Made by a program: the position numbers and the translations under genes. A stretch of DNA of 64,000 nucleotides, taken from an uncultured Gammaproteobacteria bacterium (GTDB lineage: Bacteria; Patescibacteriota; Microgenomatia; CAZETR01; Amesbacteraceae). The notes beneath the pieces were generated by a model. It saw only the letters and a list, made by a program, of their open reading frames with translations, made no database searches and had not been told where the DNA came from. The DNA lies in NCBI GenBank assembly GCA_964633995.1, contig CAZWKN010000005.1, positions 920 to 64,919 on the forward strand. The letters are read 5' to 3'. Shown here in pieces: positions 43,829 through 60,313 of this stretch (its first letter is position 1; each line of letters opens with the position of its first letter).

Positions 43829-43869
43829 TCCCTCTCCATAATTGTGGAGAGGGGCAGGGGGTGAGGTGG
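43829..43869. repeat. Palindromic repeat element (CCCTCTCC-ATAATTGT-GGAGAGGGG plus GGGGGTGAGGTGG tail), intergenic copy upstream of miaA
   Basis: A 9-bp inverted repeat flanks an AT loop, followed by the G-rich tail. The same architecture recurs at least 12 times in the window. Confidence 0.85.
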
Positions 43870-43884
43870 TTGAGTTAAAATGAG

Positions 43885-44799
43885 ATGATGGTGTCCAAAG
43901 TTCTCATTATCAGTGGTCCTACTGCGACAGGAAAAACTAAATTTGGGTTAGAAATAGCCAAACAGTTCGACGGTGAAATTGTCTCCGCCGACTCTCGCCA
44001 GGTCTACATAGGTAAAAACATAATTCATGGCAAAGATCTCCCCGTCACTGTCAATTGTCAATCGTCAATTGTCAATTGGAGAGGGAGACGTTTAAAATAT
44101 TATGTAGTCGATGGTGTCAGGGTGTGGTTGTATGACGTAGTCAATCCCGGTGAAGACTTCAGTGTGGCTTTTTGGAAAGAATGCGCCGATTTGGTAATAG
44201 CAGATATTGTTTCGCGCAACAAATTGCCAATTATTGTCGGCGGTTCAGGTCTTTACATCAAATCACTTACCCAAAACCTGTCCCAGGTTTCAGTACCCCG
44301 CAACGAGAAACTAAGAGATCAGCTCCTAAATAAATCTGTCAAATACCTGTTTAATTATTTAAATCGTATCGATTCTTTCCGTGCCGCAGCCCTAAATCAT
44401 TCTGATAAAAACAACCCCCGTCGCCTTGTCAGGGCAATTGAATTATCGTTGTCAAAAGAAAAGTTACACCCCTCTCCTGAATTAAAGAGAGGCCTGTCTG
44501 CCGGCATGGCAGGGGTAGGGGGTGAGGTTTTGCAAATTGGTCTCATTGCCCCCCGCGATTATCTTTATCAGCTCGTAAATCACAGGGTCTCAGATCGCAT
44601 TGCAGCCGGCGCTGCCGCCGAGGACGCAAACTTAGCGAATTCACCAGTTCTTTGGCAAAATCAGGAACATGCCATTATTCGCCACCAACTCACCTGGTTC
44701 AAAAAACAACCCAACGTGACTTTTTTTGACGTTTCAGCTCCAAATTGGCAGGCAAACGCAACGACTTTTATCAAAAATTGGTATAATAACTCTACATGA
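43885..44799 (+). CDS. miaA: tRNA dimethylallyltransferase MiaA (carries in-frame repeat-derived insertions)
   Basis: P-loop ISGPTATGKT and SADSRQVY motifs. The ORF includes the heptamer tract at 44050-44078 and the palindromic element at 44468-44529. Confidence 0.85.
   Translation: MMVSKVLIISGPTATGKTKFGLEIAKQFDGEIVSADSRQVYIGKNIIHGKDLPVTVNCQSSIVNWRGRRLKYYVVDGVRVWLYDVVNPGEDFSVAFWKECADLVIADIVSRNKLPIIVGGSGLYIKSLTQNLSQVSVPRNEKLRDQLLNKSVKYLFNYLNRIDSFRAAALNHSDKNNPRRLVRAIELSLSKEKLHPSPELKRGLSAGMAGVGGEVLQIGLIAPRDYLYQLVNHRVSDRIAAGAAAEDANLANSPVLWQNQEHAIIRHQLTWFKKQPNVTFFDVSAPNWQANATTFIKNWYNNST
44050..44078. repeat. Tandem heptamer tract (TCAATTG x4, one variant) inside miaA
   Basis: tcaattg tcaatcg tcaattg tcaattg encodes ...VNCQSSIVN... 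in a region absent from typical MiaA. A similar tract lies in recJ at 56334-56378. Confidence 0.6.
44468..44529. repeat. Palindromic repeat element copy in frame within miaA (encodes ...HPSPELKRGLSAGMAGVGGEV...)
   Basis: CACCCCTCTCC-TGAATTAA-AGAGAGG plus a CTGCCGGCATGGCAGG palindrome module and a GGGGTAGGGGGTGAGG tail. The reading frame avoids the TGA and TAA in the loop. Confidence 0.85.
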
Positions 44800-45793: not shown

Positions 45794-46096
45794 TCCACCT
45801 GGAGACCGTGCGTCTATGCCTCCACAGTCCGGCTTGCCGGATGAAGGGGTAAGGAAAGTCCGGACAGCAGAAGGCAGGGTACCCCGCCGATGAGGCGGGG
45901 ACGCGCAAGCGCTAGATAGTGCCACAGAGACAACGACTCATCCCGCCAATGGCGGGAAAGAGGGTGAAAAGAGGAAAACCTTACCCGCTGCAACCTCCGA
46001 AATGGGTGGGTAGCCTTCCCCAATACCCAAAAGCTTGAGGGCGCAAGATAGATTGACGCATTAAAACAGAATCCGGCTTACCAGTTTCCAGGTGTA
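45794..46096 (+). ncRNA. rnpB: RNase P RNA (bacterial type A), compact roughly 300 nt
   Basis: Conserved P4 strands GGAAAGTCCGGAC (5') and ACAGAATCCGGCTTA (3'). P1 pairing CACCTGGA/TCCAGGTG at the ends. Also ...GCCACAGAGACAA...CCCGCCAATGGCGGG...AGGGTGAAAAGAGG... and GCTTGAGGGCGCAAGATAGATTGAC. Confidence 0.9.
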
Positions 46097-46268: not shown

Positions 46269-46832
46269 ATGCCGTTCTTGCTGGATCCCAAAGGCATTAA
46301 CTTTCGTGATCGCCCCATTCTGTTCATCGACCTAGAAACCACCGGCCTGGATCGACATCATCACGAGATTGTAGAAATTGCCGCCTTACTGGTTTCCCAG
46401 CCAGATTTTACCGTTACCAACTCTTTTTATACTAAAGTTATTCCGACCCATATCGAAACTGCCGATCCAAAAGCTCTCAAAGTGATCAATTATTCACCAG
46501 ATGATTGGCAGGAGGCTATCCCCCTAAACCAGGCTATGGAAGAATTGTCCAACTTTGCTCCTGGTTGCATCTTGGCTGGCTGGTCAGTCCAAACCGAGTG
46601 GGATTTTTTATGCCAATCGTTAGAAGCATGCAAACTCCCGTATTTTTTTACCCACCGGCTATTAGAGGTCTATACTCTGGCTTTTGCCAAATTTTACAAC
46701 GATCAATCCATTTCGTTTCTCAATCTGCCAAATGTTTGCAAAGCTCTAAATATTCGGCTAGATCAGCACAAACCAGATTCGGATATCCGTGCCACCTACG
46801 AGATCTTCAAACGCCTTTTCCCGTCCCCATAA
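46269..46832 (+). CDS. DEDD-family 3'-5' exonuclease (DnaQ/oligoribonuclease-like)
   Basis: Exo I motif ILFIDLETTGLD, Exo II and III regions with H/Y and D. 187 aa. Confidence 0.75.
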   Translation: MPFLLDPKGINFRDRPILFIDLETTGLDRHHHEIVEIAALLVSQPDFTVTNSFYTKVIPTHIETADPKALKVINYSPDDWQEAIPLNQAMEELSNFAPGCILAGWSVQTEWDFLCQSLEACKLPYFFTHRLLEVYTLAFAKFYNDQSISFLNLPNVCKALNIRLDQHKPDSDIRATYEIFKRLFPSP

Positions 46833-47262
46833 TTTCTCTAATTTTTTCAACCACTTTCTCTGTATCACTATCCACCTCCGCATTCCATACTTCCAGCAAG
46901 TTAATTCCAAAAGATTCTAAATATCTTCTTCGATAACAATCATATTTTTTATTGCTCTCGATTTTATGTACACTTCCAAGCAATTCAACCCCAAATCTTT
47001 TTTCCGGGCAATAAAAATCTATCACATATCCATTCACGCTATATTGTCTTCTAAATTTCACACCCAATTTGCCATTTCTCAGACTTTCCCACAACAACTT
47101 CTCTGCCTTTGTTGATTTCTGTCGCAAATCCCTTCTCCGCGCCTTCAATTCTGTACGGTAATACACCCTTTTTCTGTCGTCCACATTTCTAATTTTACTC
47201 TCCCAAAACCCCCCCTCTCCATAATTATGGAGAGGGGGTTGGGGGGTGAGGTGGAAGACCAT
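46807..47262 (-). CDS. DUF559 (Vsr-like endonuclease-fold) domain protein, copy 1; N-terminus runs into the palindromic repeat
   Basis: ...LWESLRNGKLGVKFRRQYSVNGYVIDFYCPEKRFGVELLGSVH... matches the DUF559 core. The first roughly 20 codons (..PPLHNYGEGG..) are encoded by the repeat element at 47210-47240. Confidence 0.7.
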   Translation of the reverse strand: MVFHLTPQPPLHNYGEGGFWESKIRNVDDRKRVYYRTELKARRRDLRQKSTKAEKLLWESLRNGKLGVKFRRQYSVNGYVIDFYCPEKRFGVELLGSVHKIESNKKYDCYRRRYLESFGINLLEVWNAEVDSDTEKVVEKIREIMGTGKGV

Positions 47263-47338
47263 GCGTCACAGTTGGGGTTGGGGGGTGAGGTGGAAGACCA
47301 TATGTCACAGTTGGGTGATGGGGGTGGGGTTGAAAAGG
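47210..47338. repeat. Palindromic repeat element cluster with an internal tandem duplication (about 39-nt unit x2)
   Basis: CCCCCCTCTCC-ATAATTAT-GGAGAGGGGG, then GGTTGGGGGGTGAGGTGGAAGACCAT(G/A)(C/T)GTCACAGTTGG twice. The listed minus ORF 47225..47437 (PPHPPTP repeats) is derived from this repeat. Confidence 0.85.
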
Positions 47339-47354
47339 GTTTAGTAGCCTACCA

Positions 47355-47385
47355 CCAAAAAACCCCGCCATCGGCGGGGTTTTTG
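47355..47385. terminator. Bidirectional rho-independent terminator
   Basis: AAAAAACCCCGCC-ATCG-GCGGGGTTTTT. Lies 18 nt downstream of the minus-strand zinc-ribbon gene. Confidence 0.75.
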
Positions 47386-47402
47386 TGATCGAAAAGCAAG
47401 GC

Positions 47403-47546
47403 TTAGGCAGCACCGATCTTATACATACCGGTTCCACAAACTGGACATTTGCCCTTCATTGCGGCCTTACCATTTTTCATCGTTACTTTTTGGGCACTAG
47501 GATCTTCTCTTTTGGTTCTACATTTTACGCAAAACATTGAAGCCAT
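47403..47546 (-). CDS. Small zinc-ribbon protein (47 aa; two CxxC pairs)
   Basis: MASMFCVKCRTKREDPSAQKVTMKNGKAAMKGKCPVCGTGMYKIGAA. Strong SD GAGGAGGTGAGG 7 nt upstream of the ATG. A terminator follows. Preferred over the overlapping + ORF 47449..47727. Confidence 0.6.
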   Translation of the reverse strand: MASMFCVKCRTKREDPSAQKVTMKNGKAAMKGKCPVCGTGMYKIGAA

Positions 47547-52014: not shown

Positions 52015-52028
52015 TCTAGAATGACTTT

Positions 52029-52388
52029 GTGAACCTCAGATATAACAGAGTTTCTCTTAAACCACGTCGCAGACAATTAAGAAAAAATTCAACTCATTGT
52101 GAACAGTTGTTATGGGGAGAAATTAGAAACAGGAAGCTCAAATATAAATTTATTAGGCAGTATAGCGTAGATGGTTATGTAATGGATTTTTATTCACCGG
52201 AAGCAAGATTGGGAATCGAGATCGAAGGGGAGATTCATAAATTTACAAAGAAATACGATAAATATCGAGAAAAATATATAAGTGCGTTTTGGATAAAGAT
52301 TTTAAAATTTAAGAACGATGATATCCAAAACAATATTACCTTTGTCGTGGAAACAATAAAACGAAACCTTGACTCCCCCTCTATTTAA
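52029..52388 (+). CDS. DUF559 (Vsr-like endonuclease-fold) domain protein, copy 2; C-terminus and stop are supplied by the repeat loop
   Basis: ...LLWGEIRNRKLKYKFIRQYSVDGYVMDFYSPEARLGIEIEGEIH... The last codons ..SPSI plus TAA lie inside the palindromic element at 52375. Confidence 0.7.
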   Translation: MNLRYNRVSLKPRRRQLRKNSTHCEQLLWGEIRNRKLKYKFIRQYSVDGYVMDFYSPEARLGIEIEGEIHKFTKKYDKYREKYISAFWIKILKFKNDDIQNNITFVVETIKRNLDSPSI

Positions 52389-52487
52389 CTAAAGAGAGGG
52401 GGGCTGGGGGGTGAGTTAAACACAAACAAATCAAGTTTTCTCCCCCTCTATTTAACTAAAGAGAGGGGGGCTGGGGGGTGAGTTACA
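52375..52487. repeat. Two tandem copies (about 66-nt spacing) of the palindromic element, variant loop TATTTAACTAAAG
   Basis: CCCCCTCTA-TTTAACTAA-AGAGAGGGGGG CTGGGGGGTGAG occurs twice. Confidence 0.85.
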
Positions 52488-53685
52488 CCTTCAACTTCCC
52501 TTTAGTAATCTCCCCCAAATTAGCCAAAATATTTGATTTAAAGTTAAAAGTTAATTGCGACTTTTCTTCATATCTTTTTTCAGCCAGTGCTATCAACTTA
52601 TCCAAAAAGCTGGCATAAGTGTAACCCGATGCAGTCCATAGGAAATGCGCCAAACTTCCGGGAATGGTGTTCAATTCGTTTATATAAATCATTTTCTCAT
52701 CCCGGCTTACTAGAAAATCTGCTCTAGTAAAACCAAATCCGTCGATAGCCGAAAAAGCTTGTTTAGCAAAGTCACTGATCTTTTTCAAAGTACCAGGTTT
52801 TATTGGAGCCGGAATAATGTGTTGGCCCGACGCCATGCCGGCGTTTTTTAGCCCGGTTTTTGTCCCCTTAGACATGTATTTGTCCTCATATGACAGAAGT
52901 CCTTTAGAAGGTACATATTCGCACACAGATGTTTCCAATTCGTCGCCAGAATTACCCATCACCGAAATATTTATTTCCATAAAATTCTCCGCCGATTCCT
53001 CGACCAAAATTTTTCGGTCATAAAAGCACGCCACGTCAATCGCATCTTTCAATTCGGTGGTGGTAGTGGCTCTGGAAATACCAATACTGGATCCACCATT
53101 GCACGGCTTTACATACACCGGCAATTTAAGTTTAGTTAATTTGCGCAATATCATTTCGGCATTTTCTCTCCAGTCCTTCCTGAAAAAATACTGATACTTA
53201 ACTTGTGGGAGGCCGGCCTGAGTAAAAATTTGTTTTTGGATGATTTTGTCCATCCCAAGCGCGGATCCCACTACTCCACATCCTACATATGGCACATTTA
53301 ACAACTCCAATAGTCCCTGTGTGCAACCATCCTCGCCGTTCGTGCCATGAAAAATAGGGAAAATTACATCAGCCTGTTCCAGGGTCTGTATCAGGTTGGT
53401 AGACCCAATCGCCCGAATCTGTTTTGCCAACTTGCCCTTGTCGCTCAAAGAAATCGTCACGCCCGGATTGTTTTCTTCCAATGAAACCAAATCTTTATAT
53501 TTATTGGGGGAAAGAAAAGCATCGTTGCCCAAAATCCACTTACCCGATTTACTGACATAAATAGGTACCAGGTCATACTTGGACCTGTCCAGGTTTTCCA
53601 TTGCTTGGAGTGCCGAAATAATCGAAATCTCATGCTCAGTCGACTTTCCTCCAAACAACACCACCAATCTCTTTTTGGTCATCAC
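52483..53685 (-). CDS. ddl: D-alanine--D-alanine ligase
   Basis: N-terminal LVVLFGGKSTEHEISIISA and an ATP-grasp domain. 400 aa. Confidence 0.85.
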   Translation of the reverse strand: MMTKKRLVVLFGGKSTEHEISIISALQAMENLDRSKYDLVPIYVSKSGKWILGNDAFLSPNKYKDLVSLEENNPGVTISLSDKGKLAKQIRAIGSTNLIQTLEQADVIFPIFHGTNGEDGCTQGLLELLNVPYVGCGVVGSALGMDKIIQKQIFTQAGLPQVKYQYFFRKDWRENAEMILRKLTKLKLPVYVKPCNGGSSIGISRATTTTELKDAIDVACFYDRKILVEESAENFMEINISVMGNSGDELETSVCEYVPSKGLLSYEDKYMSKGTKTGLKNAGMASGQHIIPAPIKPGTLKKISDFAKQAFSAIDGFGFTRADFLVSRDEKMIYINELNTIPGSLAHFLWTASGYTYASFLDKLIALAEKRYEEKSQLTFNFKSNILANLGEITKGKLKV

Positions 53686-55066: not shown

Positions 55067-56683
55067 ATGACTCTCGACTCTATCATCCAACTTCTTCTCA
55101 AAAATCGCGGTCTGACGACCAAAAAAGCTATCGCGGATTTTTTTTCACCTCCCCATCCCAACGATATCATCTCACCCTTTGACTCCAAACCTGCTATCGA
55201 CTTAATTCATAGTCACATAGCTCAAAATAACCCCATTGCCGTTTATGGCGACTACGACGTCGATGGTATCTGTTCAACAGCAATTTTGTGGGAGACGTTG
55301 CATGCAGAATATCCGCATGTTTTTCCCCACATTCCTCACCGAAGGCTTGAAGGTTACGGCTTGTCTATTGCCGGGATCGATCATTGTCTTGCCCAGGGTG
55401 CCAAACTAATTATTGCTGTAGACAACGGTATTACTGCCGTGGATCAGGTTAAGTATTGTCGTGACCATGGATGTGACATTTTAATCATCGACCACCACGA
55501 AAAAGGTTCAACGCTTCCGGATACGCAATATGTACTACACGCTACGGATTGTTGTGCCGCCGGCCTGACCTGGTTTTTCTGCCGAGACTACATTAAAAAA
55601 TTCCCCTCTCCTGAATTAAGGAGAGGGGGCAGGGGTGAGGTTTTAGAACTAGTCTCTCTCGCCACCATATGTGACATGGTTCCTCTAATTGGCACCAACC
55701 GTTCTTTTGCCAAATTTGGATTAGAGCAATTAAACCACACCACCCGCCCCGGCCTCCTTGCCTTATTTCAAAAAGCCTCTCTAACCCCTAACACCCAACC
55801 CCTAACCACCTATCATATCGGTTTTCTCATCGGTCCTCGTCTCAATGCCATGGGTAGATTGGAGCACGCTATCGACAGTCTCCGTCTGCTTTGTACCAAA
55901 GATCCGATCAAGGCAGATTCAATCGCCACTTTACTAAACGACACCAACAAGCTTCGCCAGGATCTTACTGAGTCAGCCGTAAAAAACGCAACAAATTCAC
56001 TATCCCCTAGCTCCCTATCCCCAGTAATAGTTGTCTCCAGCTCGGATTACGACGAAGGGGTTATCGGGTTAATCGCTTCCAAGTTAGTTGAAAAATTTCA
56101 TCATCCGGCAATCGCTATTAGTGTAGGGGAGACCGTGTCCAAAGGTTCAGCCAGATCTATTCCCGGTTTTGATATTACAGCTCATTTGCGCCAGTTTTCC
56201 GGTTTGTTGGTAAGCATAGGTGGTCACACCATGGCCGCTGGTTTCACCATCGAAACCTCAAGGATCCAGGATCTAGTATCTAGCATCTCCCATCCAGATA
56301 TCCCCAAGGAGTTGTTGCAAAAAACCCAACGTGTCGATTGCGAAATTCCATTGTCGATTGTCAATTCTCAATTATCAACTGCACTCAAATCTTTCGAGCC
56401 ATTTGGCCTTGGCAACCCCACTCCGGTTTTTCAATCACAAGCCGAAATTTCATCGATCAAAACCATGGGCAGTATGGGACAACATGCCAGGTTAACTCTA
56501 AAGGATTGTCCATTCGATGCCGTCTGGTTCAACGCCACATTCCCCTCTCCTGAAATGAGGAGAGGGGGTAGGGGTGAGGTTGTGGGAGAAGTTTGGAACA
56601 TAATTTATACTCTCTCCGAAAACACCTACAACGGCCAAACCAAACTCCAGCTACTCATCAAATCCGTTACCCCCTCTCCATGA
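55067..56683 (+). CDS. recJ: Single-stranded-DNA-specific exonuclease RecJ (DHH/DHHA1), carrying two in-frame palindromic-element insertions
   Basis: DHH motifs (VYGDYDVDGICS; ILIIDHHE) and a DHHA1 region (GGHTMAAG). The stop TGA lies in the loop of the repeat copy at 56670. Confidence 0.85.
   Translation: MTLDSIIQLLLKNRGLTTKKAIADFFSPPHPNDIISPFDSKPAIDLIHSHIAQNNPIAVYGDYDVDGICSTAILWETLHAEYPHVFPHIPHRRLEGYGLSIAGIDHCLAQGAKLIIAVDNGITAVDQVKYCRDHGCDILIIDHHEKGSTLPDTQYVLHATDCCAAGLTWFFCRDYIKKFPSPELRRGGRGEVLELVSLATICDMVPLIGTNRSFAKFGLEQLNHTTRPGLLALFQKASLTPNTQPLTTYHIGFLIGPRLNAMGRLEHAIDSLRLLCTKDPIKADSIATLLNDTNKLRQDLTESAVKNATNSLSPSSLSPVIVVSSSDYDEGVIGLIASKLVEKFHHPAIAISVGETVSKGSARSIPGFDITAHLRQFSGLLVSIGGHTMAAGFTIETSRIQDLVSSISHPDIPKELLQKTQRVDCEIPLSIVNSQLSTALKSFEPFGLGNPTPVFQSQAEISSIKTMGSMGQHARLTLKDCPFDAVWFNATFPSPEMRRGGRGEVVGEVWNIIYTLSENTYNGQTKLQLLIKSVTPSP
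55601..55641. repeat. Palindromic element copy in frame within recJ (encodes FPSPELRRGGRGEV)
   Basis: TCCCCTCTCC-TGAATTAA-GGAGAGGGGG CAGGGGTGAGG. Confidence 0.85.
56334..56378. repeat. Degenerate tandem heptamer tract (TCGATTG/TCAATTN) inside recJ
   Basis: tcgattg cgaaattccat tgtcgattg tcaattc tcaatta tcaa encodes ...DCEIPLSIVNSQLST... The heptamer family matches the miaA tract. Confidence 0.5.
56541..56581. repeat. Second palindromic element copy in frame within recJ (encodes FPSPEMRRGGRGEV)
   Basis: TCCCCTCTCC-TGAAATGA-GGAGAGGGGG TAGGGGTGAGG. Confidence 0.85.
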
Positions 56684-56995
56684 TTATGGAGAGGGGGGGC
56701 CTGCCCGCCGGCAGGCGGGGGTGAGGTGGAATATTATGTCATCGCTAAACCCGCCCTGGCGGGTGTGGCGATCTTGGGTAGAGATTGCTTCTCTTCGTTC
56801 GCAATGACATAAAACTGTTCGTGCACCCCCCTCTTAAATTAAGAGGGGGGAAGGGGGGTGATATCTCTCTTATGGTGTCATCGCGAACCCGCCCCGGCAA
56901 TCCCATATTGTCATCGCGAACCCGCCTTGGCGGATGTGGAGATCTACATCTCCCTCTCCTGAAATGAGGAGAGGGAATAAGGGAGAGGTCATAAT
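56668..56995. repeat. Dense composite repeat cluster: three palindromic-element variants plus three copies of a second repeat (TGTCATCGCGAACCCGCC-YTGG-CGGRTGTGG) and an inverted partial copy
   Basis: Element variants at 56670-56730 (loop ATGATTAT plus a GCCTGCCCGCCGGCAGGCGGG module), 56826-56865 (CTCTTAAATTAAGAG) and 56948-56992 (CTCTCCTGAAATGAGGAGAG). TGTCATCGC... copies at 56737, 56876 and 56908, with an inverted GCAATGACA copy at 56801. Confidence 0.8.
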
Positions 56996-57391: not shown

Positions 57392-57537
57392 ACCCTCAAA
57401 GCGTTATTAGTCTGCCGACACCAGACGAGCTTCCCGAAAAAACCGGGACGGACCCATCCGTAAAAGTGGAAATCAAGACCCCTGATGTGGATGGCACCTT
57501 GGATCCGCACCATTAAAGGGTCTTTTTTGTTTTTATT

Positions 57538-57580
57538 TCCCCTCTTAGATTAAGAGGGGAACCCGAAGGAGGGGTGATAT
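57538..57580. repeat. Palindromic element variant (CCCCTCTTAGATTAAGAGGGG plus GGAGGGGTGA) overlapping the aspS ribosome-binding site
   Basis: The tail AAGGAGGGG ends 9-11 nt before the aspS ATG. Confidence 0.75.
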
Positions 57581-58900: not shown

Positions 58901-59805
58901 CCAAGAAATTTCTTATCCGCAAATTCAAGCTGCTATTTCATAAATCCAAAAAAAAAGATTTTTCTCACCTGGCGGTCTTTTTATTGACGGTTTTAATCGG
59001 TCTAAATCTTTCATCACCATCAAAAATCCCGGTTACTAGGCAGTCGGTTTTAGGGCAATCATCAAAATTTCTCAAAGCCTCGCCACCCGTCGTTTCCGCT
59101 AAAAGCGTTTTTATTCTCGATATAACTTCTGGGGAAGTGGTCTATCAAAAACAAGCAGATTCCGAGGTCTACCCGGCATCCACCACCAAAATGATGACAG
59201 CTGTAATTGCCAAAGAAACTTTCGACCCGAATCAAGTCCTCACCATTTCCCGTCTATATAATCTTGGGAGTCAGGATCTCAAATTGCCGGTAGGCGGGAA
59301 AATTACTATAGAAAAATTGCTGTACGCTCTCCTGGTTTCTTCTTCAAACGATGCGGCCGAAATACTTGCCGAAAATTACCCCGGAGGAAGAACCGCTTTC
59401 GTTGAGGCCATGAATCGCAAGGCTTCGGAACTGTTACTTCACCACACTCATTTTGAAAATCCTACCGGCTTGGACCAAATAAACCATTATTCATCCGCAG
59501 CCGATTTAGCCAGGTTGGCCAAACATCTGATTTCAGTTCCGGAATTAGCCAGGATCGTTGGGACTCAAACCGCCGTCCTTTCCACCGTCGACTTTTCCGG
59601 GGTCTACACGGTCACAAATGTAAACCAGCTGTTGGGTAAAGTGCCTGGCGTTATGGGGGTAAAGACTGGTTTTACAGATTTAGCAGGCCAGGTCTTAGTG
59701 ACTTACGTCAATCGCGAGAACAGACCTCTAATCATTAGTGTCCTGGGCAGTTTAGACCGTTTTTCTGATACCGAATCCCTCATCACCTGGGCCTATTCGC
59801 AATAA
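58897..59805 (+). CDS. D-alanyl-D-alanine carboxypeptidase (S11 family, PBP5-like)
   Basis: SxxK ASTTKMM, SxN SSSND and KTG KTGFT motifs. N-terminal TM or signal. Confidence 0.8.
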   Translation: MTKKFLIRKFKLLFHKSKKKDFSHLAVFLLTVLIGLNLSSPSKIPVTRQSVLGQSSKFLKASPPVVSAKSVFILDITSGEVVYQKQADSEVYPASTTKMMTAVIAKETFDPNQVLTISRLYNLGSQDLKLPVGGKITIEKLLYALLVSSSNDAAEILAENYPGGRTAFVEAMNRKASELLLHHTHFENPTGLDQINHYSSAADLARLAKHLISVPELARIVGTQTAVLSTVDFSGVYTVTNVNQLLGKVPGVMGVKTGFTDLAGQVLVTYVNRENRPLIISVLGSLDRFSDTESLITWAYSQ

Positions 59806-60130
59806 CAACTTCTCCACAACCTTGTCCATATCCCTTTCAACTTCATTATTCCAAAATTCCAGTACAACTATGCCAAACGCCTCTAAATATTTTTTTCTGT
59901 AACCATCATATCGATCCCCAATCTTTTTTCCGGACAATAAAAATCCATTACATACCCATTCACGCTGTACTGTCTTCTAAATTTTACCCATAATTGATTG
60001 TTTCGCAATTTTTCCCAAAGCAATTTCTCTGCATTCGTCGATTTTTGTCGTTAATCTCTTCTTCTGGCCTTGAGTTCAGTACGATAATATACTCTTTTTC
60101 TATCGTCCATGCCATAATTTTACTCTTCTT
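59752..60130 (-). pseudogene. DUF559 gene copy 3, disrupted (frameshifted); only a 61-aa C-terminal ORF remains
   Basis: Nucleotide sequence 59905-60125 is near-identical to 46925-47205 (DUF559 copy 1) but with a broken frame. The remnant ORF ...KKYLEAFGIVVLEFWNNEVERDMDKVVEKL matches the copy-1 C-terminus. It is followed by the same palindromic element. Confidence 0.7.
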
Positions 60131-60133
60131 ATT

Positions 60134-60300
60134 TCTCCCCTCTCCACAATTGTGGAGAGGGGCAGGCCTGCCTGCCGGCAGGCAGGGGGTGAGGTGGTAC
60201 GCGTGTCGCGGAATTATTGTGAAGTTATGGTTACAGCGTGTGGGCAGGGGGTGAGGTGGTACACACGTCGCGGAACTATTGTGAAGTTATGGTTACAGCA
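60134..60300. repeat. Palindromic element (loop ACAATTGT plus GCCTGCCTGCCGGCAGGCAGG module) followed by a diverged tandem duplication (about 62-nt period x2)
   Basis: CCCTCTCC-ACAATTGT-GGAGAGGGG, then GGCAGGGGGTGAGGTGGTAC..CGTCGCGGAA.TATTGTGAAGTTATGGTTACAGC repeated at 60181 and 60243. Confidence 0.85.
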
Positions 60301-60313
60301 TTGGGTTTCTACT

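Follow-up and report, generated by a model that had tools for sequence, protein, structure and literature searches.

The window analysed here, a 64,000-nt stretch of contig CAZWKN010000005.1 (assembly GCA_964633995.1), carries three loci of the DUF559 family (PF04480), each of them beside a GC-rich repeat. Judged by its letters, this repeat has the class II purine-motif intrastrand triplex layout of the triplex motif (TM), also called BoxC, PIT or TM_ECO. The partnership of DUF559 gene and TM is conserved across Bacteria, and the window shows a local instance of this domain-wide pairing. The two are inherited together, as a unit that is present or absent at otherwise syntenic sites. We lean towards explaining the window by a compact mobile cassette, of which it would have three copies, one of them dead. 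In this cassette a YcjD-type DUF559 nuclease gene is bounded by TMs, and the nuclease would act on the TMs at its flanks.

DUF559 genes in the window

All six frames of the window were scanned with a DUF559 profile, and the listing of open reading frames (ORFs), Pfam and tblastn were also used to locate copies. An earlier note on this DNA had counted three DUF559 copies; Pfam, tblastn and the six-frame scan agree with that count, resolving it into two intact genes and one dead copy. The profile scan, run over the six frames of the whole window, gave no fourth copy or remnant.

Copy 1, at 46807..47184 on the minus strand, is intact and encodes a YcjD-type Vsr-fold nuclease; translation probably starts at GTG 47184, which gives 125 aa. 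Its longest ORF, 46807..47262(-), matches Pfam PF04480 with E=4.6e-28 and NCBIfam PRK09767 (YcjD) with 7.7e-21. The N-terminus of this ORF had been taken to be encoded by the repeat. However, GTG 47184, which stands 27 nt off the hairpin, is the most likely start because close homologues of copy 1 begin M(D/E)DRKRVY. The 26 additional repeat-encoded residues of the longest ORF, on this comparison, are an artefact of ORF calling.

Copy 2, at 52029..52388 on the plus strand, encodes 119 aa from a GTG start and is also intact (Pfam E=1.7e-25). In the tblastn search it shows 50% amino-acid identity to copy 1, and the alignment indicates that the catalytic residues are kept. An out-of-frame ATG ACT TTG (MTL) lies at 52021-52031, 8 nt upstream of the GTG, and MTL is the usual start of homologues (MTLIYN..). 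The original start of copy 2 may have been lost through a small frameshift.

Copy 3, at about 59785..60110 on the minus strand, is a pseudogene split over two frames. In the frame of the homologues it reads MDDRKRVYYRTELKARRRD*RQKS.., with an in-frame TAA at the site of a TTG (Leu) codon of copy 1. In addition, a 40-nt deletion takes out the ELLGSVHKIESNKK segment encoded in copy 1, and with it the catalytic His. The nonsense codon and the deletion bear out the earlier assignment of a pseudogene, as opposed to a sequencing frameshift. Its identity to copy 1, formerly put at 85-90%, is lower by our measurement: 78.3% over 249 nt and 71% over a further 104 nt, or 76% over 229 nt when aligned without gaps.

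The Pfam DUF559 scores are 97.7 and 89.5 bits for the intact copies and 37 and 34 bits for the fragments of the pseudogene, against a cut-off of 20.6. With PRK09767 the bit scores are 74 and 63, which are under the equivalog cut-off of 218, so the window copies are members of the family and not YcjD orthologues. DUF559 is the only Pfam family above its curated cut-off for these copies; below threshold, we saw matches to REase_MTES_1575 and to the PvuRts1I N-terminal domain, and one to DUF4304 at chance level. The neighbouring genes encode RNase T, a zinc-ribbon protein, SecF, Ddl and a D-Ala-D-Ala carboxypeptidase-like protein; no cytosine methyltransferase gene of the Dcm type is found among these neighbours. 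PADLOC gave no meaningful match to a defence system.

Every copy lies 13-28 nt from a GC-rich repeat, in line with the adjacency that had been noticed at first reading. The probability that 3 random points all fall within 60 nt of one of the 12 repeats in the window is ~1e-5 when calculated analytically, and no such arrangement arose in 200,000 trials. The pairing does not run the other way, as 5 of the 8 repeat sites are without a DUF559 gene and three of the repeat copies lie inside other genes.

Architecture of the triplex motif

The 12 repeat copies of the window are confined to 43.8-60.3 kb, in its last quarter, with none in the first 43 kb. Each copy consists of a pyrimidine arm (e.g., CCCCTCTCC), a loop of 3-6 nt, a complementary purine arm GGAGAGGGG and a G-rich third segment GGGGTGAGG. 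The third segment begins 2-7 nt past the purine arm and is its mirror image, with A answered by A or T; loop 2 reaches 19-28 nt in the three copies in which a GC palindrome is nested. All 12 copies yield 7-12 allowed triplets over stems of 8-12 positions. The motif hairpins fold as DNA, and the third segment stays unpaired in these folds, which take in only the Watson-Crick hairpin. The repeat had previously been described as a palindrome. The hairpin is indeed palindromic, but this description leaves out the polar third segment, and the known BoxC/PIT triplex motif had gone unrecognised.

The motif was first noted in E. coli as BoxC and then as PIT elements, and was later studied as TM_ECO (Holder et al. 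2015, PMC4666352), where earlier work by Hoyne, Maher and colleagues is cited. In E. coli the repeats have been on record since the 1990s. More than 260 genomes contain them; E. coli has 23 copies of TM_ECO, reported as always intergenic, and no transposase, integrase or common class of flanking genes was found beside TMs (PMC4666352). Single strands of TM_ECO form a triplex in vitro, and increased local instability has been linked to TMs (PMC4666352). We found no report that links DUF559 or YcjD to these repeats in the literature covered, outside of which most subscription journals lie, so an earlier report is possible.

Copy 1 is bordered on its 5' side by a TM of type A at 47211..47253 (plus strand), which reads CCCCCTCTCCAT / ATGGAGAGGGGG / GGGGGTGAGGTG and has a 12-bp perfect stem with 10/12 allowed triplets. 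The DNA hairpin of this TM folds at -15.2 kcal/mol (z=-2.7). The stretch 47235..47340 (plus strand) is made up of tandem 39-nt units, in each of which the third-strand segment GGGGGTGAGGTGGAAGACCAT recurs, and of a G-rich tail; the direct repeats at 47235-47273 and 47274-47312 are 95% identical. Copy 3 likewise has a type A TM on its 5' side, at 60137..60196 (plus strand), with an 11-bp stem, 10/11 triplets and a GC palindrome at 60163-60185 in loop 2. It folds as two hairpins (-21.6 kcal/mol, z=-4.4). Two direct repeats of 57-62 nt at 60181..60299 (plus strand; 93% identity) each open with the third-strand segment GGCAGGGGGTGAGGTGG.

Copy 2 is followed by two TMs of type B. The first, at 52375..52418 (plus strand; 12/12 allowed triplets), has a pyrimidine arm that codes for the last codons of copy 2 and contains its stop codon; the second, at 52442..52485 (plus strand), is 98% identical to the first and abuts the 3' end of ddl. 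A search of the bare end upstream of copy 2 gave no second TM. The TM subtype thus tracks the lineage of the adjacent gene, with type A at copies 1 and 3 and type B at copy 2.

Weak matches to a type A half-motif occur at the 3' ends of copies 1 and 3, at 46819-46833 and 59810-59824, respectively (p about 0.02, taken against the repeat-free part of the window). The former, CCCGTCCCCATAATT at 46819..46833 (plus strand), was found by local alignment to type A and is tentatively assigned as a decayed half-motif. It encodes the FPSP* end of the convergent RNase T gene, and the C-terminus of RNase T in a syntenic relative (L084) differs exactly there. These traces suggest that the cassettes of copies 1 and 3 formerly had motifs at both ends.

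All 12 TMs of the window share one orientation, with the G-rich third strand on the plus strand. The GC skew of the plus strand is negative in most 1-kb windows, and the cumulative skew falls along the window. Across 80 other loci, TM strand and GC skew are related by a weak trend, 42 vs 27.

TMs might instead serve the DUF559 transcript in cis, as regulators or terminators that insulate, for instance, a toxic nuclease gene, with the dispersed copies being unrelated look-alikes. Hairpins in the 5' leader and over the stop codon would fit such a role, as would a Shine-Dalgarno-like AGGAG within the purine arm. However, the dispersed copies share both the three-part motif and its subtypes, some TMs lie in frame inside genes, and no T-run follows the TMs. 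Furthermore, PIT elements reportedly showed no promoter or terminator activity (PMC4666352), and a search of Rfam, at the gathering score and at E<=1, gave no RNA family over the repeats, only RNase P and chance hits. We therefore consider a regulatory origin highly unlikely.

Pairing of gene and motif across Bacteria

We scanned genomes, one per species, with a 12-sequence alignment as the query and obtained 80 DUF559 loci from Patescibacteria, Ignavibacteria, Bacteroidota, Cyanobacteria, Chloroflexi, Fibrobacteres, Poribacteria, Terriglobia and others. Only perfect hairpins were accepted: the stem had to measure 7 bp or more and the loop 3-14 nt, and the left arm had to include CCC and be free of G. 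A TM-type hairpin lies within 250 bp of the gene in 75 of the 80 loci. The density of hairpins is 2.24/kb near the gene vs 0.068/kb in the other 1.1 Mb of the flanks, a 33-fold enrichment.

The third strand recurs together with the hairpin. A mirror third strand is present within 10 nt on one side of 145 of the 228 hairpins at these 80 loci, against 0 in a random-flank control from the same locus. It also co-varies with the stem between lineages: in Patescibacteria/Amesbacteria loci the pair is AAGAGGGG and GGGGTGAT, a cyanobacterium has AAGGGGGGG and GGGGGGGTA, and a Poribacteria genome has AAGGAGGGG and GGGGAGGTT. Where TMs on both sides of the gene could be oriented, they form inverted pairs in 20 of 26 cases, and one locus (L055) has complete TM doublets on both sides of the gene. 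Peptides encoded by the pyrimidine arm are common at the C-termini of homologues and of the wider family, such as ..TPSPQLWRG.., ..PLLTKERG.. and ..PPLVRGE.

Six further lineages were drawn from a separate genome collection, namely N. gonorrhoeae, Deinococcus, Picosynechococcus PCC 7002, Azospirillum, Photobacterium and Sphingomonas, and all six have flanking TMs. The TM-bearing locus of N. gonorrhoeae matches the crystallised DUF559 protein 3HRL (NGO0050). In Sphingomonas the cassette sits between two transhydrogenase subunit genes. These results establish the association of gene and TM. The family is a very large one and numbers 48,978 clusters at 50% identity (E<=1e-3).

Could the pattern of the window nevertheless come from chance or from assembly, with repeats and short ORFs gathering wherever a compact genome leaves room between genes? 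Genes are densely packed here, and copy 1 also occurs on an independent short-read contig that breaks off within the repeat, 15 bp upstream of where the longest ORF starts. Against this stand the window probability of ~1e-5 and the repetition of the pattern in 75 of 80 independent loci, in the six further lineages and in finished E. coli genomes. This recurrence refutes chance or artefact, whose remaining probability we take to be negligible.

Some database proteins have 2 or 3 DUF559 units per ORF (P0079, P0080, P0081 and P0084). They may be read-through tandem cassettes; one motif-like linker was seen, in P0080. A separate locus (L075) has a 735-nt tandem duplication with 97.8% identity.

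Gene and motifs behave as a unit

The homology between copies 1 and 3 begins in the third-strand segment, takes in the hairpin, the 5' leader and the gene, and ends at the stop codon. Syntenic relatives of the window were found by a metagenome scan with SecF. One of them, the 640-kb contig L084, keeps the gene order of the window, with protein identities of 55-73% for most window genes and 43-89% overall. Synteny with L084 and with a second locus (L005) places the window near Candidatus Amesbacteria. The whole copy 3 cassette, a ~508-bp insertion at 59806..60313, is located exactly between the stop codons of two convergent genes (pbp/orf60314). In L084, L089 and L090 these two genes abut or overlap, leaving an empty site, and we conclude from the same empty junction in all three that the 508 bp at 59806-60313 are an insertion. 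The empty sites are too diverged for base-level comparison with the window.

The site of copy 2 varies as well. In L088-L090, secF directly adjoins the next conserved gene, where the window has copy 2, two TMs and ddl. None of the syntenic relatives has ddl (52483-53685, minus strand) at this junction: L084 carries two unrelated ORFs in its place, and no gene stands there in L088-L090. On this comparison, the secF junction is a variable spot that took up more than the cassette.

The recJ junction presents the opposite case. The gene is followed directly by hairpin-DUF559-hairpin in L084 and by nothing but three clustered TMs in the window, and the recJ stop codon falls inside a hairpin arm in both. 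The TM cluster of the window, at 56670..56989, is probably the relic of a cassette from which the gene was lost and the repeats were left.

Multi-copy genomes show the unit as well. In Oscillatoriales USR001, a 493-nt unit with 95.7% identity occurs at two loci with unrelated flanks. The unit comprises the gene with 88 nt upstream and 70 nt downstream, and takes in both motifs and ~35 nt past them. Discrete units were seen in four multi-copy genomes besides USR001; in an Ignavibacteriaceae genome, four copies share 410-480 nt at 74-87% identity. The suggestion of the earlier note that nuclease gene and repeats belong and travel together is therefore strongly supported, and in general form, by 75 of 80 loci, the empty sites and the paralogous units.

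Two published observations count as indirect support. DUF559 genes are enriched among predicted programmed-inversion targets (PMC9881135), which is expected because the genes lie between inverted repeats. In Legionella, DUF559-containing repeats are recombination hot spots (PMC12308824).

Fold and active site of the nuclease

An AlphaFold2 model of copy 1 (pLDDT 85.9, pTM 0.80) was matched by Foldseek to 3HRL (1.2e-6), to 3R3P (I-Bth0305I; 1.1e-3) and, weakly, to Vsr (~0.1). A profile of 33 homologues picked out the same two structures, 3HRL with 7e-28 and I-Bth0305I, a homing endonuclease, with 1.8e-5 over its catalytic domain. The window copies are thus predicted to have the Vsr-like PD-(D/E)XK fold. 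We mapped the EDxHD residues through the 3R3P alignment, with roles taken from PMC3239194. They correspond to E28, D56, H73 and D82 of copy 1, numbered from the GTG start, and their Vsr counterparts are E25, D51, H69 and D97 (PMC3239194). None of these four residues varies among 33 aligned sequences, copies 1 and 2 included, and copy 3 is without the His segment of the active site. According to the model, the window proteins, at 119-125 aa, comprise the nuclease domain and short N-terminal helices, without a separate DNA-binding domain.

A scan of 2.9 million viral contigs with a DUF559 pattern confirmed no relative, so a phage-borne homing gene is unlikely. A chromosomal form of homing might still be envisaged, in which a free-standing homing endonuclease gene targets pre-existing TMs that spread by another route, the flanking TMs being its split or duplicated target. 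The closest characterised relative is a homing endonuclease, solo TMs outnumber genes (0.068/kb in the flanks) and are free of DUF559 remnants, E. coli has 23 TM_ECO vs one ycjD, and complete TM doublets stand on either side of the gene in L055; all of these would be in keeping with homing into TMs. By contrast, three observations tie gene and TM together: the TM subtype tracks the gene lineage in the window (A for copies 1 and 3, B for copy 2), the unit shared by paralogues spans the TMs and about 35 nt beyond, and the protein is without the N-terminal DNA-binding domain of EDxHD homing enzymes. Homing into pre-existing TMs thus seems to us distinctly unlikely.

E. coli ycjD and BoxC

The ycjD gene of E. 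coli K-12 (L082, NC_000913.3 1351040-1351830) runs into a decayed hairpin at its end, ..NRRSPSP*. Downstream, part of the 3' end of ycjD is duplicated, and a complete BoxC follows ~180 nt away. By arithmetic, the chance that one of 23 TM_ECO in 4.6 Mb falls within 250 nt of a given gene is about 0.3%. The gene is absent from 38% of complete E. coli genomes. In the genomes without ycjD, an RND efflux (eef) operon replaces ycjD and BoxC between sapF and fabI; as this is a replacement and not a clean empty site, it does not define the ends of the cassette. Among the genomes listed, those without ycjD have 1-10 BoxC-like matches vs 10-20 in those with ycjD, a comparison confounded by phylogeny.

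The E. coli gene bears on a further alternative, namely host maintenance. Here a chromosomal, non-selfish nuclease would process TM hairpins or triplexes in replication, as Vsr does with mismatches, and TMs would regulate the gene or insert there. Consistent with such a task, E. coli has a single ycjD at one locus, the scan of 2.9 million viral contigs yielded no relative, the family is very large and chromosomal, and TMs are linked to local instability (PMC4666352). Nevertheless, the window has three copies within 13 kb, one of them decayed, and the presence of the gene at syntenic sites is patchy. Insertions lie exactly between stop codons and inside the transhydrogenase gene cluster, near-identical units stand at unrelated sites, and more than a third (38%) of complete E. 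coli genomes are without ycjD. A multi-copy, patchy, inserted and often missing gene is unexpected of a housekeeping gene, and we thus disfavour host maintenance, which we regard as unlikely.

Putative mechanism and points against it

The reading that we favour, the TM-bounded mobile cassette, leads to a putative mechanism. Initially, the nuclease would recognise its own flanking repeats by their structure, hairpin or triplex, and not by an extended sequence. Nicking or cutting at the flanking TMs would follow. Repair of the break from another TM-bearing copy would spread or keep the cassette, in a homing-like or REP/RAYT-like manner. Solo TMs, TM clusters and in-frame TMs would be non-autonomous derivatives, or relics left after gene loss. 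We infer from the sequence pattern both the action of the nuclease on TMs and the spread and upkeep of cassette and solo TMs by that action. The more general proposal, that YcjD-type DUF559 proteins are structure-specific nucleases which recognise triplex-forming BoxC/PIT repeats and create, move or maintain them, is put forward tentatively, as one nearly as likely to hold as to fail.

A number of points weigh against the mobile cassette and its mechanism. The action on TMs is inferential for every YcjD-type protein. At the 'x' of the EDxHD motif, the clade nearest the window has L, E, K, V, G or Y and not D; the active homing enzyme I-Bth0305I has Asn at this position (PMC3239194). No stable triplex was seen in double-stranded DNA or in vivo, and the earlier studies summarised in the same paper found polymerase arrest in vitro and no effect in vivo (PMC4666352). 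The ends of the cassette are not uniform: 6 of the 26 oriented TM pairs are direct instead of inverted, and the inverted pairs have two opposite polarities, with third strands inward in 13 and outward in 7 (5 of the latter 7 in Patescibacteria loci). Each window copy has only one clear TM-bearing end, and no target-site duplication is discernible at the two insertions of the USR001 unit. Copies 1 and 3 are only 78% identical, which indicates no recent movement in this genome. Finally, E. coli ycjD is single-copy at a fixed locus, and E. coli genomes without ycjD still carry BoxC copies.

Comparison with known systems

The BoxC/PIT/TM_ECO repeats have the same layout as the repeats of the window and occur singly or as inverted pairs in many phyla. 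They differ in that the E. coli copies are reported as always intergenic and without mobility genes or a common function among flanking genes, whereas three copies of the window lie in frame and a nuclease gene is the regular neighbour. In apparent working, the closest parallel is REP/RAYT, in which a short, structured and dispersed repeat is accompanied by a small chromosomal nuclease gene flanked by inverted repeat copies. The likeness extends to the DUF559 gene being flanked by inverted TMs (20 of 26 oriented pairs) and to most repeats lying far from the gene. However, the protein here is a Vsr-fold PD-(D/E)XK nuclease in place of an HUH Y1 (IS200/IS605-like) transposase, the TM has a third mirror segment and no GTAG head, and DUF559 is often multi-copy and often decayed. 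The DUF559-TM cassette is hence not a member of the REP/RAYT family.

The EDxHD homing endonucleases (I-Bth0305I, PDB 3R3P; PMC3239194) agree with the window proteins in fold and in the catalytic E, D, H and D, and the genes resemble each other in being insertion-like. In contrast to the N-terminal NUMOD/helix-turn-helix module and the intron or intein setting of these enzymes, the window genes are free-standing between housekeeping genes and have neither. Vsr is related in fold and active site, with weak similarity (Foldseek E about 0.1), and an earlier profile link between YcjD and Vsr is on record; unlike in the Vsr repair system, no cytosine methyltransferase adjoins the window copies. The Rickettsia palindromic elements are short structured repeats that are tolerated in frame in housekeeping genes. 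They may be likened to the in-frame TMs in variable loops, although sequence and structure differ, and we know of no nuclease gene associated with them. With insertion sequence (IS) elements and miniature inverted-repeat transposable elements (MITEs), the cassette shares a gene between inverted ends and gene-free copies of these ends. It departs from them in its USR001 insertions without visible target-site duplication, in a protein far smaller than transposases and in an end polarity that is not fixed.

If the proposal holds, two unexplained items would explain each other, the DUF559 nuclease family and the BoxC/PIT/TM repeats. DUF559 includes an E. coli y-gene and a solved structure, with function so far unassigned, and TMs are without known origin, function or mobilising enzyme. 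There would be a second, independent gene-repeat system of the REP/RAYT kind across most bacterial phyla, with a Vsr-fold nuclease and a non-B-DNA target, and the instability reported at BoxC loci would be explained. Should the nuclease recognise a triplex or hairpin, it would be a natural enzyme for non-B DNA, and its cassette a small mobile one of a new kind. E. coli K-12, with ycjD and 23 TM_ECO copies, and the 3HRL protein, NGO0050 of N. gonorrhoeae, lend themselves to a direct test of the link. For annotation, the link accounts for the 'PSP..RG..GEV'-type tails and fused tandem DUF559 ORFs in databases, as well as for in-frame peptide insertions in housekeeping genes of Patescibacteria.

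Solo and in-frame motifs and other features of the window

Three TMs of type C lie in frame inside genes. One is in a miaA-like gene at 44471..44528 (plus strand), with a nested GC palindrome and the translation ..HPSPELKRGLSAGMAGVGGEVLQ... The other two are in a recJ-like gene, at 55603..55641 (plus strand; FPSPELRRGGRGEV) and 56542..56580 (plus strand; FPSPEMRRGGRGEV), both with 10/10 triplets. All three read PSPE(L/M)(K/R)RG..GEV, the sole stop-free frame of the motif, and occupy loops that are variable between orthologues. At the 55603..55641 stretch, recJ orthologues differ in sequence and the window protein is 5 aa longer.

Two solo TMs are found outside genes: one of type A, intergenic, at 43830..43867 (plus strand) just upstream of miaA, and one of type D (CCCCTCTTA../..GGGGTGATA) at 57537..57579 (plus strand), 5 nt upstream of the ATG of the next gene. 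A type D TM also flanks DUF559 at three loci (L004, L009 and L020) from metagenome-assembled genomes of Patescibacteria and Amesbacteria. The three TMs of the cluster after recJ, which has no DUF559 gene, are at 56670-56728, 56826-56863 and 56951-56989 (plus strand). As the six-frame scan shows no DUF559 remnants beside the solo TMs, they are not simply recent wrecks of the gene.

Further palindromes accompany some of the motifs. A second GC palindrome, CCTGCC(Y)GCCGGCAGGCAGG, lies inside loop 2 of three TMs, at 44493-44518, 56698-56716 and 60163-60185; a similar palindrome was seen at another locus (L018), but in loop 1. Between the three TMs after recJ, at 56737-56775 and 56876-56945, there is another palindromic repeat family, GTCATCGCGAACCCGCC..GGCGG.TGTGG.GATC, at the place of the DUF559 gene in a relative.

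Three other features lie near copy 1. The RNA of bacterial RNase P class A is encoded at 45798-46096 on the plus strand, between the permease and RNase T genes, with 113 bits, above the gathering score. A 47-aa zinc-ribbon ORF (CxxC..CxxC) at 47403-47546 on the minus strand is 89% identical to its L084 counterpart, far above the conservation of its neighbours. After this ORF, at 47361-47386, a GC hairpin with flanking A- and T-runs resembles a two-way terminator.

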